Both the position numbers and the translations under genes were made by a program. A stretch of DNA of 10,667 bases from a virus (lineage: Duplodnaviria; Heunggongvirae; Uroviricota; Caudoviricetes). Below the pieces are notes generated by a model that saw nothing but the letters and a program-made list of their open reading frames with translations, was not told where the DNA came from and made no database searches. Positions 1 through 10,667 of this stretch are shown piece by piece; within the stretch, counting starts at the first letter, position 1; each line of letters starts with the position of its first letter. The stretch is taken from positions 1 to 10,667 of the IMG/VR virus record IMGVR_UViG_2778261646_000002; one strand, written 5' to 3'.

Positions 1-1
1 T

Positions 2-112
2 CTGAGACAACATCTGGCAAGGCTGGGACGGAAGTCACTGTCGTTCTCAAAATCGGTGGAGCTGCATGACAAGGTCATCGGGCATTATCTGAACATAAAA
101 CACTATCAGTAA
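2..112 (+). CDS. 3' end of an upstream ORF that runs off the window start (partial); identity not determined
   Basis: Frame 2 is open from position 2 to a TAA at 110-112 (translation ...[36 protein letters not shown]). No start is visible in the window. It could be the real end of the neighbouring gene or an out-of-frame remnant of the ybhJ 5' region. Confidence 0.3.
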
Positions 113-180
113 GTTGGAGTCATTACCCCTCTCACGATATTACCTTTGTTGGTATTGTACAGACCGCTAAAGCGTCCGGT

Positions 181-3605: not shown

Positions 3606-3620
3606 GCTTTTTTATACTAA
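3606..3620. other. Phage lambda att core (15-bp common overlap sequence) at the attL prophage-host junction
   Basis: Exact GCTTTTTTATACTAA. The left flank (CCGTTGAAGCCTGC) matches the bacterial B arm and the right flank (GTTGGCATTATAAAAAAGCATTGCTTATCAATTTG...) matches the lambda P' arm, recalled from the lambda attP sequence. Confidence 0.92.
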
Positions 3621-3700
3621 GTTGGCATTATAAAAAAGCATTGCTTATCAATTTGTTGCAACGAACAGGTCACTATCAGTCAAAATAAAATCATTATTTG
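3621..3700. promoter_or_regulatory. Lambda P' arm with IHF H' site and Int arm-type binding sites P'1-P'3
   Basis: IHF-consensus-like TATCAATTTGTTG at about 3645-3657. Three tandem arm-type-like elements follow: AGGTCACTAT, CAGTCAAAAT and AAATCATTAT at about 3667-3697, matching the lambda arm-site consensus (C/A)AGTCACTAT. Confidence 0.8.
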
Positions 3701-4764
3701 ATTTCAATTTTGTCCCACTCCCTGCCTCTGTCATCACGATACTGTGATGCCATGGTGTCCGACTTATGCCCGAGAAGATGTTGAGCAAACTTATCGCTTA
3801 TCTGCTTCTCATAGAGTCTTGCAGACAAACTGCGCAACTCGTGAAAGGTAGGCGGATCCCCTTCGAAGGAAAGACCTGATGCTTTTCGTGCGCGCATAAA
3901 ATACCTTGATACTGTGCCGGATGAAAGCGGTTCACGACGAGTAGATGCAATTATGGTTTCTCCGCCAAGAATCTCTTTGCATTTATCAAGTGTTTCCTTC
4001 ATTGATATCCCGAGAGCATCAACATGCAATGCTGTTGGGATGGCAATTTTTACGCCTGTTTTGCTTTGCTCGACATAAAGATATCCATCTACGATATCAG
4101 ACCACTTCATTTCGCATAAATCACCAACTCGCTGCCCGGTAACAACAGCCAGTTCCATTGCAAGTCTAAGCCAACATGGTGATGATTCTGCTGCTTGATA
4201 AATTTTCAGGTATTCGTCAGCCGTAAGTCTTGATCTCCTTACCTCTGATTTTGCTGCGCGAGTGGCAGCGACCGGGTTTGTTGTTATATGGCCTTCAGCT
4301 ATTGCCTCTCGGAATGCATCGCTCAGTGTTGATCTGATTAACTTGGCTGACGCCGCCTTGCCCTCGTCTATGTATCCATTGAGCATTGCTGCAATTTCTT
4401 TTGTGGTGATGTCTTCAAGTGGAGCATCAGTCAGACCCCTCCTTATTGCTTTAATTTTGCTCATGTAATTTATGAGTGTCTTCTGCTTGATTCCTCTGTT
4501 GGCGAGAATTTTTTCGTAGCGATCAAGCCATGAATGTAACGTAACAGAATTATCACTGTTGATTCTCGCTGTCAGAGGCTTGTGTTTGTGTCCTGAAAAT
4601 AACTCAATGTTGGCCTGTATAGCCTCAGTGATTGCTATCCTCCTGTCTCGGCCTAATCCAAACTCTTTACCCGTCCTTGGGTCCCTGTAGCAGTAATATC
4701 CATTGTTTCTTATATAAAGATTAGGGGGTAAATCCCGGCGCTCATGACTTCGCCTTCTTCCCAT
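3694..4764 (-). CDS. int: Lambda integrase (tyrosine site-specific recombinase), 356 aa
   Basis: Translation matches lambda Int as recalled, from MGRRRSHERRDLPPNLYIRNNGYYCYRDPRTGKEFGLG to RDDRGREWDKIEIK. Tyrosine-recombinase catalytic region present (HELRSLSARLY ... LLGHKSDTMASQY). The stop lies about 74 bp from the att core, as in lambda. Confidence 0.97.
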   Translation of the reverse strand: MGRRRSHERRDLPPNLYIRNNGYYCYRDPRTGKEFGLGRDRRIAITEAIQANIELFSGHKHKPLTARINSDNSVTLHSWLDRYEKILANRGIKQKTLINYMSKIKAIRRGLTDAPLEDITTKEIAAMLNGYIDEGKAASAKLIRSTLSDAFREAIAEGHITTNPVAATRAAKSEVRRSRLTADEYLKIYQAAESSPCWLRLAMELAVVTGQRVGDLCEMKWSDIVDGYLYVEQSKTGVKIAIPTALHVDALGISMKETLDKCKEILGGETIIASTRREPLSSGTVSRYFMRARKASGLSFEGDPPTFHELRSLSARLYEKQISDKFAQHLLGHKSDTMASQYRDDRGREWDKIEIK

Positions 4765-4960
4765 TTCTGATCCTCTTCAAAAGGCTACCTGTTACTGGTC
4801 GATTTAAGTCAACCTTTACCGCTGATTCGTGGAACAGATACTCTCTTCCATCCTTAACCGGAGGAGGGAATATCCTGCATTCGCGCACCCATCGACGAAC
4901 TGTTTCAAGGCTTCTTGGGCGTCGCTGGCGTGCGTTCCACTCCTGAAGTGTCAAGTACAT
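4742..4960 (-). CDS. xis: Lambda excisionase Xis, 72 aa
   Basis: Translation from the internal Met, MYLTLQEWNARQRRPRSLETVRRWVRECRIFPPPVKDGREYLFHESAVKVDLNRPVTGSLLKRIRNGKKAKS, matches lambda Xis. The 3' end overlaps the int start by 23 nt, as in lambda. The longer 102-aa ORF to 5050 is an upstream in-frame extension. Confidence 0.93.
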   Translation of the reverse strand: MYLTLQEWNARQRRPRSLETVRRWVRECRIFPPPVKDGREYLFHESAVKVDLNRPVTGSLLKRIRNGKKAKS

Positions 4961-4986
4961 CGCAAAGTCTCCGCAATTACACGCAA

Positions 4987-5008
4987 GAAAAAGCCGCATT
5001 GATGCGGC
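4987..5008 (-). terminator. Candidate intrinsic terminator on the minus strand just upstream of xis
   Basis: Stem GCCGCA (4993-4998), loop TTGA, stem TGCGGC (5003-5008). An A-run at 4988-4992 on the plus strand gives a U-tract after the hairpin on the minus strand. Confidence 0.4.
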
Positions 5009-5077
5009 GATGGTAGGTCTGGATATCATTGAGCAATGAACAGGCCTCATCGAGTGTGAGGCGGTGTTATTTCATGG

Positions 5078-5338
5078 TTAGTCCTTGCGTAGCTCGCTGA
5101 TTCTTCTGTAAGTCTCTGGTGCTTTGTTTCCGTGTATCTTCATTTCAAACTTCAACAGAGCAACGAGAGAATCCCATTCGTTGAGGATGCCTTTGAATGC
5201 CGGAACGCGCTTTGCAACCTTGTCGAATGAATCTCTGATTTCTGGAATCTGCTCAACAAGTGCAACGCATCGCCGGAAGTCTGCTGCGTCATGTGGAGCG
5301 CCGAAGTGATGACCATAGATATTTTTTTCAGTCCACAT
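5078..5338 (-). CDS. Hypothetical phage protein, 86 aa
   Basis: ORF with protein-like composition (MWTEKNIYGHHFGAPHDAADFRRCVALVEQIPEIRD...). No obvious Shine-Dalgarno before ATG 5338. An overlapping alternative ORF in another frame (start ATG 5421 with a GGAG Shine-Dalgarno, end 5152) competes for this region. Confidence 0.45.
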   Translation of the reverse strand: MWTEKNIYGHHFGAPHDAADFRRCVALVEQIPEIRDSFDKVAKRVPAFKGILNEWDSLVALLKFEMKIHGNKAPETYRRISELRKD

Positions 5339-5447
5339 GCGATTGAGGCAAGAGTTGCGCTACTGATGCCGACATCGCCAGTTGATTGCCATTTCAAAAC
5401 CTTCATAGCCAAATCTGACATTTCTTGTCTCCAATAAAAAACCGCCA

Positions 5448-5615
5448 TCAGGCGTCTTGGTGTTCTTTCAGTTCTTCAATTCGAATATTGGTTACGTCTG
5501 CATGCGCTATCTGCGCCCATATCATCCAGTGGTTATAGCAGTCGTTGATGTCCTCTGCTTCGATAACCCTGTCGAATGGCTCTCCATTCCATTCACCTGT
5601 GACTCGGAAGTGCAT
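5448..5615 (-). CDS. Hypothetical small phage protein, 55 aa
   Basis: ATG at 5615-5613 preceded by GGAG 8 nt upstream. Translation MHFRVTGEWNGEPFDRVIEAEDINDCYNHWMIWAQIAHADVTNIRIEELKEHQDA. Shorter than the 60-aa cutoff of the ORF track. Confidence 0.45.
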   Translation of the reverse strand: MHFRVTGEWNGEPFDRVIEAEDINDCYNHWMIWAQIAHADVTNIRIEELKEHQDA

Positions 5616-5626
5616 TTATCATCTCC

Positions 5627-5653
5627 ATAAAACAAAACTCGCCGTAGCGAGTT
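5627..5653 (-). terminator. Candidate intrinsic terminator on the minus strand between the DUF551 gene and the 55-aa ORF
   Basis: Stem AACTCGC (5636-5642), loop CGTA, stem GCGAGTT (5647-5653). On the minus strand it is followed by TTTTGTTTTAT. Confidence 0.45.
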
Positions 5654-5715
5654 CAGATAAAAGAAATCCCCGCGAGTGCGAGGATTGTTATTCACCTTTG
5701 ACGGCAAGTTGCAGG

Positions 5716-6243
5716 TTAGCCACGGTTAACCTCCTGCGGCGGTTCTGGCAGCGGCATCCAGTGGGTTACGTCATCCAAGATATTTCCTGATAAATATGTG
5801 AAAGCTCTATATTTTTTGTAATCAATTGGACTCATTACCCAGTTCCAATATGCTGCCACTATTTGACCTTGACTAAATGCCAGTAACATTTTGGTGTCGT
5901 CCGGCATTCGCTCACTACAGCTTATCCAACCATCCGGAGTTACCGGCACTGGCTGAGCGGTATAAAGCGGTGTTATATCTGCCCGAAAATTACATGCTTT
6001 ATGCAGCCGCACCCCCCGTTCGACTTCTGCTTTGTCAGGATACATACCAGTGAACGTGTTATATTCACGGTCAATTTGCGTGAAGGTTACCTTCCACGCC
6101 ACCGGCTCTGCCTCAAGCGATGCCAGAGCAATTCGTGCCAGTTCTTCCGCTTCTTCTGCTGGCAGTACAACGTTGCTACCAGGTCTGTATGTTTCGCGCC
6201 ACTGCTTGATTGTCAGCAGTCGCTCTTTGGTAATAGTGGTCAT
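5716..6243 (-). CDS. DUF551-domain prophage protein, 175 aa
   Basis: C-terminal region WISCSERMPDD...VAAYWNW...VTHWMPLPEPP fits the DUF551 pattern common in enterobacterial prophage early regions. The ATG overlaps the upstream stop (ATGA) and has an AAGGA Shine-Dalgarno. Confidence 0.8.
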   Translation of the reverse strand: MTTITKERLLTIKQWRETYRPGSNVVLPAEEAEELARIALASLEAEPVAWKVTFTQIDREYNTFTGMYPDKAEVERGVRLHKACNFRADITPLYTAQPVPVTPDGWISCSERMPDDTKMLLAFSQGQIVAAYWNWVMSPIDYKKYRAFTYLSGNILDDVTHWMPLPEPPQEVNRG

Positions 6244-6755
6244 GCCGCGTTTCCTTCTTTCTTATTAACAATTACACCGTCATATATTTCATTAAGGTGC
6301 CCTCTCAACTCCATGCGCCTTAATGCAGATAACATGTAATCGCATTCAACCTGCTTATTTCCAGTAAATGGCTTATCGTCAGGATTACCCCAACAGCAAT
6401 TACCCTTGGGCCATCCATGTACTTTCCGTACTCTTCCGTTAACAACGTGAAGTAATCCCCAGCCGGGAGGTAAATCCTCAACTGAAATAATTTCCGGCTC
6501 ACTAATAAAGAATCGCCAGTCGCCCATGCCAAGTGAGGGATTTTTACGGAAACGCTTTTTTCTATCTGCCAACAAGTCAGCACGAGAACACTTCGCCTCT
6601 ATCAGGCATGATGCTGAATTTCTGAATCCCATAGCATCTGGCTGTTCTCCGGTACTGGTTACAGCTATAAAGCGGTCATGAAAACAGACCTTGAACCCGT
6701 TGCGCTTAAGGAACTTGTGCGCAATCTGACAGAGTTCGCTGTGTGTTAACGCCAT
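6240..6755 (-). CDS. Hypothetical protein with a PD-(D/E)XK nuclease-like motif, 171 aa from MALTHSELCQ
   Basis: Preferred start is ATG 6755, with AAGGAG 6 nt upstream and 1 nt after the stop of the Ea22-like gene. Contains GEQPD ... LIEAKCS, a PD-x(n)-E-x-K arrangement, and a Cys-containing C-terminal half (GNCCWGNPDD, VECDY). Functional call is motif-based only. Confidence 0.65.
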   Translation of the reverse strand: MALTHSELCQIAHKFLKRNGFKVCFHDRFIAVTSTGEQPDAMGFRNSASCLIEAKCSRADLLADRKKRFRKNPSLGMGDWRFFISEPEIISVEDLPPGWGLLHVVNGRVRKVHGWPKGNCCWGNPDDKPFTGNKQVECDYMLSALRRMELRGHLNEIYDGVIVNKKEGNAA

Positions 6756-6756
6756 A

Positions 6757-7350
6757 TCACTCTCCTTTGATGCGAATGCCAGCGGCACGGGAATCATTCC
6801 ATCGCTTTACTTCTTCACGAATTACGTCAATGCATTCTTTCGAATCCATTAGGTAATCTTCATCAAAAAGACGTTCCTGTTCGTTTTCTATCGCAACAAT
6901 GATTGCTTCAACTAACTTTTGTACCTGAGAACCACTTTCTAACTCTGCTATGCGCTTACTCCCATCCGAGATAACGCCCTCGTAATACTCACGCTGCTCG
7001 TTGAGTTTTGATTTTGCCAACTCCAGTTGTTTTGTTAGTTCCGCAATACGGCAAACATCGTTGATACGCGTTTCCTCTAATGCGTTGATCTCATCCAACA
7101 ATGCCAGCGCAACATTTGGATTAAAAGCAGCAATAAATTCAGCGTTTGCATAAGCCTGAACATCTGTTTCAACCAGGCAGTTAACATGACATTCTGCAAT
7201 CACGCCACCGGGTTCTCCTTTCCATTTTTGGCAAACAAAAACTCCTGTTAAATTGCCGTGCTGGTTAACAGATGTATGCCCTACGATGTAGCTCCCTTTC
7301 GTTGCCTTTTCTGCCGCATCACGCAGTGCCTGATAATTAATTTCGCTCAC
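6757..7350 (-). CDS. Ead/Ea22-like phage protein, 197 aa (GTG start)
   Basis: N-terminus MSEINYQALRDAAEKATKG resembles the Ea22-like family of lambdoid prophages, with a coiled-coil-like central region. GTG start at 7350 with GGAGGA Shine-Dalgarno; GTGA overlap with the upstream stop. Confidence 0.7.
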   Translation of the reverse strand: MSEINYQALRDAAEKATKGSYIVGHTSVNQHGNLTGVFVCQKWKGEPGGVIAECHVNCLVETDVQAYANAEFIAAFNPNVALALLDEINALEETRINDVCRIAELTKQLELAKSKLNEQREYYEGVISDGSKRIAELESGSQVQKLVEAIIVAIENEQERLFDEDYLMDSKECIDVIREEVKRWNDSRAAGIRIKGE

Positions 7351-9066: not shown

Positions 9067-9743
9067 GCGGCGTTTTCCTTAATTTGATGAACATTATTGA
9101 TGCCGTAGTAATCACAAACAGTGGCATCGACGAAAGAGAGATCGTTATCAATCTCATTGGAATCAAACATTCCCATTGGGGATTTGACAGTGTCTGCACC
9201 GTTGTTTTTCGTGGTGAAAAAGAACTGGTCATCGCGGGTAAGAGTGCGAAGAACTATAGTAAACATGCCTTCGACAGTGATTTTCTCGTCCAGCATTTTG
9301 CCGATAGTTTTCATTTTCACGCGCCCCATAGGGGTTTCTTCGGTATGTGCAAGAAAATAGACTCTCAGGTCATCAGGTGCATCCTGTGCAGCCTTAATCA
9401 CCTCCCATGCGTGGCGGCCTATCTCAGTAAATTTATCAAACGATTTTTCTTCTGAGCGGCGCATAAACTCATTGCTCATCACATACTGGAAGTCATCAAC
9501 AATAACGATTCTTTTTCCGTATTCGTGAGCACGCTTAATTACAGCAACTATTACGTCCCATTTGTCAGTGGTAACTACGGTTCCTTTTTTTGCTCTGGCA
9601 TCCCATGCAAGCCAGTCTTTTGATTTAAATGGTAGCGGCTTGCCTATTGGTTTTATAAGTATTGCTTCCTCTGGATTGATATTTCTCATGCTGGTTGATT
9701 TTCCGGTGCCAGATTCACCGAGTATTAATGTCGCAGTTCCCAT
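9063..9743 (-). CDS. Sak4-type RecA-like ATPase / single-strand annealing protein, 226 aa
   Basis: N-terminal Walker A GESGTGKST and Walker B RIVIVDD. Size of about 226 aa is typical of the core-only RecA-like Sak4 proteins of lambdoid and lactococcal phages. GAGG Shine-Dalgarno before ATG 9743. Confidence 0.85.
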   Translation of the reverse strand: MGTATLILGESGTGKSTSMRNINPEEAILIKPIGKPLPFKSKDWLAWDARAKKGTVVTTDKWDVIVAVIKRAHEYGKRIVIVDDFQYVMSNEFMRRSEEKSFDKFTEIGRHAWEVIKAAQDAPDDLRVYFLAHTEETPMGRVKMKTIGKMLDEKITVEGMFTIVLRTLTRDDQFFFTTKNNGADTVKSPMGMFDSNEIDNDLSFVDATVCDYYGINNVHQIKENAA

Positions 9744-9751
9744 AATTTGCC

Positions 9752-9940
9752 TCAGAATGGTAATTCGGATGGGCAGGAAAGAAATTCGCGCTCATTCATG
9801 CGCTCTCTTTGCGCCTGCCATAAACAAAGTTGTTTCTTTGATTTATCTCCCGCTTTACGCCAGTAACGAGCCTCAGCAATGTGATATTCTCTTTTTAATC
9901 GACTTAACTCTGGAGTTTTCGCCAGTTCTACCGGAATCAT
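9752..9940 (-). CDS. Hypothetical small phage protein, 62 aa
   Basis: ATG at 9940 overlaps the kil stop (ATGA) and is preceded by GGAGGT. The upstream in-frame ATG at 9952 lies inside kil and lacks a Shine-Dalgarno. Confidence 0.5.
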   Translation of the reverse strand: MIPVELAKTPELSRLKREYHIAEARYWRKAGDKSKKQLCLWQAQRERMNEREFLSCPSELPF

Positions 9941-10050
9941 TTTGACCTCCATTTTCTGTAGGCTTCTACGGCTTCACGAAACATCTTTTCATCGCCAATA
10001 AAAGTGGCGATAGTGAATTTAGTCTGGATAGCCATAAGTGTTTTATCCAT
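9937..10050 (-). CDS. kil: Kil-like host cell-division inhibitor, 37 aa
   Basis: MDKTLMAIQTKFTIATFIGDEKMFREAVEAYRKW closely matches the N-terminus of lambda Kil as recalled. AGGAG Shine-Dalgarno present. Overlaps the cIII 3' end by 8 nt. Confidence 0.75.
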   Translation of the reverse strand: MDKTLMAIQTKFTIATFIGDEKMFREAVEAYRKWRSK

Positions 10051-10183
10051 TTTTGGGAACTCCTGGCTGATTAAGTATGTCGATAAGGCGTTTCCATCCA
10101 TCACGTAATTTACGTGTGATTCGTTCAAGTAAAGATTCGGAAGGGCAGCCAGCAACAGGCCACCCTGCAATGGCATATTGCAT
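10043..10183 (-). CDS. cIII: CIII-like protein (FtsH inhibitor that stabilises CII), 46 aa
   Basis: MQYAIAGWPVAGCPSESLLERITRKLRDGWKRLIDILNQPGVPKNG matches lambda CIII as recalled, with a shorter C-terminus. AAGGAG Shine-Dalgarno upstream of ATG 10183. The longer 80-aa form in the ORF track is an upstream extension. Confidence 0.85.
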   Translation of the reverse strand: MQYAIAGWPVAGCPSESLLERITRKLRDGWKRLIDILNQPGVPKNG

Positions 10184-10246
10184 GGTGTGCTCCTTATTTA
10201 TACATAACGAAAAACGCCTCGAGTGAAGCGTTATTGGTATGCATAT

Positions 10247-10270
10247 AAAAAGGCCCTCACACTGGAGGGC
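10247..10270 (-). terminator. Candidate intrinsic terminator on the minus strand upstream of cIII
   Basis: Stem GCCCTC (10253-10258), loop ACACTG, stem GAGGGC (10265-10270). An A5 run at 10247-10251 gives a U-tract after the hairpin on the minus strand. Confidence 0.5.
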
Positions 10271-10332
10271 AAAGAAGATTTCCAATAATCAGAACAAGTC
10301 GGCTCCTGTTTAGTTACGAGCGACATTGCTCC

Positions 10333-10360
10333 GTGTATTCACTCGTTGGAATGAATACAC
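10333..10360. repeat. Perfect 9-bp inverted repeat with a 10-nt spacer
   Basis: GTGTATTCA (10333-10341) and TGAATACAC (10352-10360). No flanking T-tract on either strand. Confidence 0.5.
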
Positions 10361-10374
10361 AGTGCTTCTCTGTG

Positions 10375-10493
10375 CTAAATAATTAAATCATATTCTGATT
10401 TGGTTAGTTTATACGCACCTCCTCTGGTGTAATATGCAAATCTGTCTTTGCTTCCATCAGAATTGTATACCCACCCACCAAATGGAAAGATAG
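10375..10493 (-). pseudogene. 3' remnant of a phage gene truncated by the IS insertion
   Basis: Two minus-strand frames are open from the IS junction: one ends at a stop at 10404-10406 (...ILMEAKTDLHITPEEVRIN*), the other at 10375-10377 (...WVYNSDGSKDRFAYYTRGGAYKLTKSEYDLII*). No start codon region is present on the window side of the IS, and the correct frame is unresolved. Confidence 0.3.
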
Positions 10494-10667
10494 TGAACCG
10501 CCCCGGGTTTCCTGGAGAGTGTTTTATCTGTGAACTCAGGCTGCCAGATCATCGTTTCCGATGGAAGCATAATAAGCTTTTTCTGCTTCTGCCGGAGGAG
10601 TATGGCCCAGCCTTTCCAGCAATCGTCGATTGTTATACCAGTCCACCCACGTGAGTGTGGCCAGTTC
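10494..10667 (-). mobile_element. IS629-like (IS3-family) insertion sequence, right end (partial; continues beyond the window)
   Basis: Plus strand from 10494 reads TGAACCGCCCCGGGTTTCCTGGAGAGTGTTTTATCTGTGAACTCA, the reverse complement of the IS629 right terminus as recalled, with the TG...CA ends typical of IS3-family inverted repeats. Followed by the transposase 3' end. Confidence 0.85.
10536..10667 (-). CDS. IS3-family transposase (OrfB), C-terminal 43 codons (partial)
   Basis: Minus-strand translation ...ELATLTWVDWYNNRRLLERLGHTPPAEAEKAYYASIGNDDLAA* carries the conserved W-x-x-WYN-x-x-R-x-x-x-x-LG C-terminal signature of IS3-family transposases. Stop codon at 10536-10538. Confidence 0.85.
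   Translation of the reverse strand, partial: ELATLTWVDWYNNRRLLERLGHTPPAEAEKAYYASIGNDDLAA

Follow-up and report, generated by a model that had tools for sequence, protein, structure and literature searches.

The stretch of DNA analysed, called the window throughout (10,667 nt), carries on its minus strand the left-arm genes of a prophage: cIII, kil, a gene for a small protein, genes for a Sak4-type ATPase, an SSB-like protein and the anti-RecBCD protein Abc2, small ORFs, xis, and int. These genes formed a pL operon. Close to the right edge, at position 10494, an IS element of the IS3 family, IS629/IS1203 isoform, begins, with its transposase on the minus strand and a total length of 1310 bp. 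The window is 99.99% identical to the chromosome of Escherichia coli CE10, with one 1-nt difference, and its region 10200-10667 is 100% identical to E. coli O7:K1 CE10 (NC_017646.1, a neonatal-meningitis isolate) and to N32, an isolate from cerebrospinal fluid (CSF). Among 5426 complete E. coli genomes, none besides these two covers at least 80% of that region. For rightward extension, 24.5 kb of CE10 around the window were taken as locus L001; to the right of the single indel, a run of seven or eight T residues, a window position equals the L001 position minus 1801. The features needed for the argument are the following.

3606-3620, plus strand: attL core GCTTTTTTATACTAA, two exact matches against a chance expectation of 0.
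3694-4960, minus strand: lambda-type int and xis, the distal end of the left arm.
9937-10050, minus strand: kil (L001 11738-11851).
10043-10183, minus strand: cIII, the first whole gene of the orphaned early-left operon (L001 11844-11984).
10138-10196, minus strand: thermoregulator of the cIII mRNA, Rfam Lambda_thermo, complete (88.5 bits, gathering score 50).
10213-10232, minus strand: intrinsic terminator hairpin, homologue of HK620 tL2B, by scan and alignment (HK620 6213-6234).
10253-10270, minus strand: intrinsic terminator hairpin, homologue of HK620 tL2A, by scan and alignment (HK620 6245-6272).
10375-10493, minus strand: truncated phage gene, codons 28-65 and stop of a 65-aa protein (phrog_15499, E 5e-49).
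10494-10667, minus strand: right (IRR) end of the IS629/IS1203-type element, running past the window edge.
10494-10518, no strand: IRR terminal inverted repeat, 23 of 25 positions as in IRL.
10536-10667, minus strand: 3' end of transposase orfB, the last 43 codons with the stop at 10536-10538 (CDS L001 12337-13550).
L001 21699-21713, outside the window: attR core, matching the attL core GCTTTTTTATACTAA.

The complete IS copy occupies L001 12295-13604, of which window 10494-10667 holds 174 of 1310 bp. Its termini, TGAACCGCCCCGGG...CCCGGGGCGGTTCA, form 25-bp inverted repeats that are identical at 23 of 25 positions and end in TG...CA; from 10494 the sequence opens TGAACCGCCCCGGGTTTCCTGGAGAG, and the far end in CE10 closes ...CCAGGATTCCCGGGGCGGTTCA. 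Length and termini correspond to those of the IS3 family (about 1.2-1.5 kb, imperfect inverted repeats, 5'-TG...CA-3'). The minus strand of the element specifies OrfA, of 108 aa, and in an overlapping frame OrfB, which ends in ...IGNDDLAA before the stop codon. The transposase was recognised by NCBIfam NF033516 'IS3 family transposase' (314.8 bits, cut-off 160), and OrfB by the Pfam profiles rve (DDE, 8e-28) and HTH_21 (3e-18). At the orfA/orfB overlap the Rfam ALIL frameshift pseudoknot was detected with 120 bits, and RefSeq annotates a programmed frameshift in the transposase; a programmed -1 frameshift is thus predicted for this gene pair.

Comparison with an O157 copy annotated as 'IS3-like element IS1203 family' revealed 1262 identical positions out of 1310 (96.3%, 48 differences), which exceeds the nucleotide identity of about 95% taken for a named IS629 isoform, and at the amino acid level 104 of 108 residues are identical in OrfA (96%) and 309 of 317 in the OrfB frame (97.5%). 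The published IS629 subtypes, among them the isoforms IS1203 and IS3411, differ from each other by 4-5% (PMC3271280). Since 96.3% identity lies within this spread and the structure agrees, the designation IS629-like, proposed in the initial annotation from the exposed terminus, is correct; every structural feature tested places the element in the IS629/IS1203 group of the IS3 family. Shared with IS629/IS1203/IS3411 of E. coli O157 and Shigella are the length of 1310 bp, the TGAACCGCCCCGGG termini, the orfA/orfB overlap, the pseudoknot, and the DDE (rve) domain, whereas the CE10 copy differs from the O157 IS629-type copy by 48 substitutions, a subtype-level difference, and by the absence of a 3-4 bp target duplication. 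The NCBI annotation for the CE10 copy is merely 'IS3 family transposase'. Places matching the IS number about 28-32 in each of the CE10 and N32 genomes, and a preference of IS629 for targets in prophages has been described (PMC3271280).

At its left end the element abuts phage sequence, as had been noted when only 174 bp of it were visible. On the minus strand, window 10375-10493 translates to IFPFGGWVYNSDGSKDRFAYYTRGGAYKLTKSEYDLII followed by a stop codon, which is the part from residue 28 to residue 65 of a 65-aa protein. The gene lacks its start codon and 27 codons, apart from 2 nt kept of codon 27. The IS boundary has an uncertainty of 2 nt, since TG is also what follows in the intact phage sequence. 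In phages 2G7b and PhiR11_1 the gene is whole and located between ea10 and ral, and in the MS 196-1 prophage it is whole but unannotated, between cIII and ral. In all three, the left flank runs on uninterrupted through the rest of the 65-aa gene to ral, N, and cI. Full-length alignment with these relatives therefore upholds the truncation of an ORF upstream of cIII and identifies the disrupted gene as the one for the 65-aa phrog_15499 protein, and the adjoining terminus is indeed that of an IS3-family element. The protein belongs to no Pfam or NCBIfam family, PHROG 15499 (function unknown) being its sole match.

A sharp mosaic boundary is located at window 10367/10368. Up to this point, ...CACAGTGC, lambdoid relatives are all alike; past it they carry different small genes, the 65-aa gene here and others in HK620, O157, and Stx phages. 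An independent IS629/IS1203 insertion about 60 bp nearer to cIII is present in O157 strain 9000 (positions 4235-5544 of locus L004, taken from this strain) and in numerous further O157 genomes. It has the same orientation, lies in a different mosaic segment, and is accompanied by a CTG target duplication. IS629 may repeatedly target the short region immediately upstream of the cIII terminators.

The far end of the IS in CE10 adjoins TCTCCAGAACTTGGCAGG..., which is located inside a P22-type gene 16, a late gene for DNA ejection. The right flank aligns to gene 16 of HK620 (31144-33312) from 32812 to the stop at 33312, with 97.2% identity over a 1.5-kb query, and its initial 862 bp are 100% identical to phage vB_EcoP-611R6. 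The remainder of gene 16 consists of 166 C-terminal codons and matches positions 539-666 of the 668 in the profile phrog_770 'DNA transfer protein'. It is followed by hkcB, hkcC, a ClpP-like gene, arc, ant, the tailspike gene, and an acyltransferase gene, after which the second lambda att core, ybhB, and bioA are found. This gene content marks the sequence beyond the IS as the right-hand end of a P22-like prophage. The 15-bp core GCTTTTTTATACTAA is thus present at both ends, next to ybhC on one side and ybhB-bioA on the other, together with lambda-type int/xis, as expected for integration at the lambda att site. Between the att cores (window 3606 to L001 21713) 16.3 kb remain, the 1.3-kb IS included.

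Nucleotide matches for the prophage were obtained with HK620, CUS-3, vB_EcoP-611R6, and the MS 21-1 prophage. The gene 16 ejection protein, an immI region with arc and ant, a tailspike gene next to att, and an early-left region of the HK620 type characterize it as P22-like, and by these sequence comparisons it is a mosaic Lederbergvirus, integrated between ybhC and ybhB, in the lambda att site, in the E. coli O7:K1 CE10 lineage. With HK620 it shares the early-left region from hkaH to tL2A (95.0% identity) and the 3' end of gene 16 through hkcB/hkcC (96.8%), in the same order and orientation. HK620, however, is complete (38.3 kb), has another integrase, att site, and tailspike, and lacks the 65-aa phrog_15499 gene, while the remnant has no equivalent of HK620 from about 6368 to 32811. 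CUS-3 of E. coli K1 RS218 resembles the remnant in the endosialidase tailspike and the phase-variable neuO gene (98.8-99.1%) with its AAGACTC heptanucleotide array. It differs in integrase, attachment site, and gene order around att; its early-left region is mostly different, with an Erf-type recombinase, and it is complete with 40.2 kb. The lambda-type int/xis/att module of the remnant is unlike that of either phage.

Several details of the two arms were noted in passing. The right arm (L001 17289-21165) contains the CUS-3-type endosialidase tailspike gene and neuO for the K1 capsule O-acetyltransferase (99.1% to CUS-3). The CE10 tailspike gene is annotated as frameshifted. At the 5' end of neuO, 18.3 copies of TCAAGAC (equivalent to AAGACTC) are present at L001 20392-20519. 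As neuO is in frame when the number of heptanucleotide repeats is divisible by three (PMC13001214), 18 repeats put the gene in frame. In the left arm, signs of decay are an ead/Ea22-like gene lacking its C-terminus according to RefSeq (window 6953-7350, L001 8738-9151) and a small gene listed by RefSeq as frameshifted (L001 8378-8556). At window 5322-5328 seven T residues are found where CE10 RefSeq and N32 have eight, splitting a 114-aa hypothetical gene (L001 6878-7222) into the overlapping ORFs 5078-5338 and 5152-5448; this may be a difference between sequencing versions or a real homopolymer frameshift. Window 1-126 belongs to a copy of IS1, inside which the window starts, and the end of this IS1 abuts ybhJ (127-2205), a RefSeq pseudogene without its N-terminus, which makes it the second gene of the window cut short by an IS, this time in the chromosomal part.

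Both ends of the CE10 element were read, and no target-site duplication is present; the flanks are GATAG-IS-TCTCC. Two simple insertions of such elements served as controls, and both show 3-bp duplications, CTG-IS-CTG in O157 strain 9000 and CAG-IS-CAG in the int gene of N32. IS629 usually duplicates 3-4 bp, and just 21 of 47 sites in O157 show a duplication (PMC3271280), so that its absence is supportive, not decisive. Decisive is the wide separation of the two flanks in all intact relatives. Homology to HK620 stops at 6367 on the left and resumes at 32812 on the right, with 26,444 bp in between. In the intact-looking MS 21-1 prophage, whose left arm and right flank are each 99.5% identical to those of CE10, 28,691 bp separate the flanks. 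From these values a deletion of about 26-29 kb is estimated; the figure is an estimate because the progenitor is unavailable and mosaic relatives had to be used.

The interval missing relative to HK620 comprises in its early part tL1, hkaP, hkaQ, N, nutL, pL/OL, cI, OR/pR, cro, nutR, and cII, then O, P, the nin region, Q, pR', the lysis genes, and the genes for terminase, portal, scaffold, and capsid, and at its end genes 4, 10, 26, 14, 7, 20, and most of gene 16. In MS 21-1, as in HK620, the stretch between the flanks takes in pL, nutL, N, and cI as well as the head genes. These functions are all lost from the CE10 remnant, in which no feature of the interval is annotated. The gene ral is likewise among those lost with the deleted segment. 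As a probe for sequences that could have been moved elsewhere, 1.2 kb of gene 16 immediately upstream of the breakpoint were used; they came from the phage whose sequence agrees fully (100%) with the retained part. The best 40 of 214 E. coli records (all at least 98.4% identical) did not include CE10, and the missing segment is therefore most likely absent, not relocated. The position of both att cores, each with its native neighbour ybhC or ybhB, excludes that the prophage was inverted or split; inversion or relocation of the missing segment was rejected on account of the att cores and the result with the gene 16 probe, again for the best 40 of 214 records. The flanks joined by this single IS have the same order and orientation in intact relatives, where they lie far from each other.

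From these comparisons it is very probable, at roughly 90%, that a P22-like prophage at lambda att underwent an IS-associated internal deletion and that the IS629-type element is the scar left by it. Alternatively, the two arms could stem from two prophages, for example tandem lysogens at lambda att, one of which lost its right part and the other its left part to an IS-mediated deletion. The mosaic nature of the remnant, with lambda-type int/xis/att, an HK620-like early-left region and gene 16, and a CUS-3-like tailspike and neuO, would fit such an origin, as would the different integrase and gene order around att in CUS-3 itself. Mosaicism is normal in lambdoid and P22-like phages, however, and both arms best match the same P22-like genomes (HK620, MS 21-1), in the order and orientation of a single prophage. 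Moreover, just two att cores are present and no internal hybrid core, which makes an origin from two prophages improbable.

Even less credence can be given to an assembly artefact, in which a collapsed multi-copy IS was falsely joined across the middle of an intact prophage. Repeats as numerous as this IS do produce misjoins in short-read assemblies, but N32, a separate isolate with a separate assembly, has both junctions base-identical to CE10, which argues against misassembly. In addition, the skipped gene 16 segment was not found for CE10 in the best 40 of 214 records, and both att cores flank the remnant in the correct chromosomal context. Least probable is the reading of the initial annotation, in which the IS simply inserted itself into the early-left region, parting pL from cIII-kil-int in a prophage complete in all else. 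In its favour, the IS end is genuine, as is the truncation of the ORF, and O157 offers a precedent with its CTG duplication and early genes beyond the IS, but in CE10 the far end joins late gene 16, the 3-4 bp duplication and contiguous flanks of a one-step insertion are both lacking, and N, pL, and cI are annotated nowhere between the IS and attR, so that a simple insertion is rejected.

The picture drawn in the initial annotation therefore has to be modified. It had placed the insertion between a surviving leftward promoter to the right of the window and the cIII-kil-int genes, which could be uncoupled from it; instead, gene 16 is found beyond the IS, and pL has been deleted along with the rest of the 26-29 kb. 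That the prophage is defective holds, while the cause is an IS-associated deletion and not a simple insertion. Extension to the right, suggested at that time, yielded the other IS end as anticipated, but not the target-site duplication sought with it.

As to expression, the homologues of tL2A and tL2B are both located between the IS and cIII, and a consensus scan detected no promoter-like site on the minus strand in 9700-10667. An outward promoter at the IS end driving cIII-kil-int was considered and rejected; the scan was negative, and inspection of IRR and flank by eye gave no good pair of -35 and -10 sequences. In lambda-type phages, cII is required for the int promoter. The left arm has no pL, no antitermination by N and nutL, and no cII. 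The transposase genes of the IS are co-directional with the operon, and at most weak read-through from them would be expected, meeting two terminators without antitermination. Because pL, nutL, N, and cII are gone, the terminators are kept, and no promoter was found, silence of the left arm is expected; it is predicted to be essentially silent and not inducible by the SOS response. The 16.3-kb remnant as a whole should be unable to replicate, to lyse the host, or to build particles. The Lambda_thermo element of cIII has been kept whole though the promoter of the operon was lost.

The breakpoints fused by the deletion lie 27 codons into the small gene that precedes cIII and about three quarters through late gene 16. 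Two routes could have led to the junctions read in CE10. A first IS copy in the 65-aa gene and a second in gene 16, oriented as direct repeats, may have recombined, or a single copy may have generated an adjacent deletion. Both would leave one IS without target duplication, and the data fit either route. Queries for the left and the right junction each matched just CE10 and N32, and the deletion is present in both. An evolutionary intermediate would be an intact prophage containing this IS and a duplication, or one containing two copies of the IS; none was found in 5426 complete genomes.

IS629 has been reported to be behind many gene inactivations and genomic deletions (PMC3271280, PMC9943667), and the latter describes its excision as promoted by the IEE protein. 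The IS629-associated deletions in EHEC O157 are alike in that a single IS joins non-contiguous parts of a prophage and phage functions are lost. They are unlike the CE10 case in host and phage, an extraintestinal O7:K1 meningitis lineage and a P22-like/CUS-3-like phage here, not a Stx or lambda-like one. The cryptic lambdoid prophages of K-12, Rac, DLP12, Qin, and e14, are also defective and keep int/xis, kil-type, and recombination genes; structural or regulatory regions are lost from them, often with IS elements at the breakpoints. They derive from other phages at other sites, and the likeness to the CE10 remnant is one of kind, not of homology. The event thus belongs to a known class, IS-associated prophage deletion, described mainly in EHEC O157, and nothing points to an unknown mechanism. 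In the literature on CE10, no specific prior description of the remnant was found.

In N32, additional IS hits were obtained within the remnant (positions 5116-6425 and 18540-22228 of the N32 locus, L009). They include an IS629-type copy in int with a CAG duplication and a further IS629-type copy, without duplication, beside a shortened acyltransferase gene. The tailspike gene of N32 carries IS1 and IS600. These extra insertions show that IS-driven stepwise erosion of the locus is continuing in the lineage.

What CE10 carries at its lambda att site is thus a prophage remnant of 16 kb, not a phage that is complete except for interruption by an IS. As pL has been deleted, it would be misdirected to look by induction or RNA-seq for an uncoupled pL operon. 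A more far-reaching proposition, which at present must be viewed as speculative and rather unlikely, is that the deletion represents domestication and not neutral decay: neuO and recombination genes would have been locked into the K1 meningitis lineage and the risk of induction abolished, after which expansion of the IS629-type element (about 30 copies) would drive stepwise erosion, with N32 showing later steps. If this were true, loss of the immunity, lysis, and morphogenesis genes would fix an in-frame, phase-variable neuO with 18 heptad repeats. IS-associated deletion is an ordinary and well-known path of prophage decay. The remnant adds a further documented case of IS629-type elements pruning prophages, outside the EHEC lineages in which this has mostly been described. 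It also means that neuO in this K1 lineage sits on an immobilised phage fragment, which bears on the use of neuO as a proxy for a functional CUS-3.
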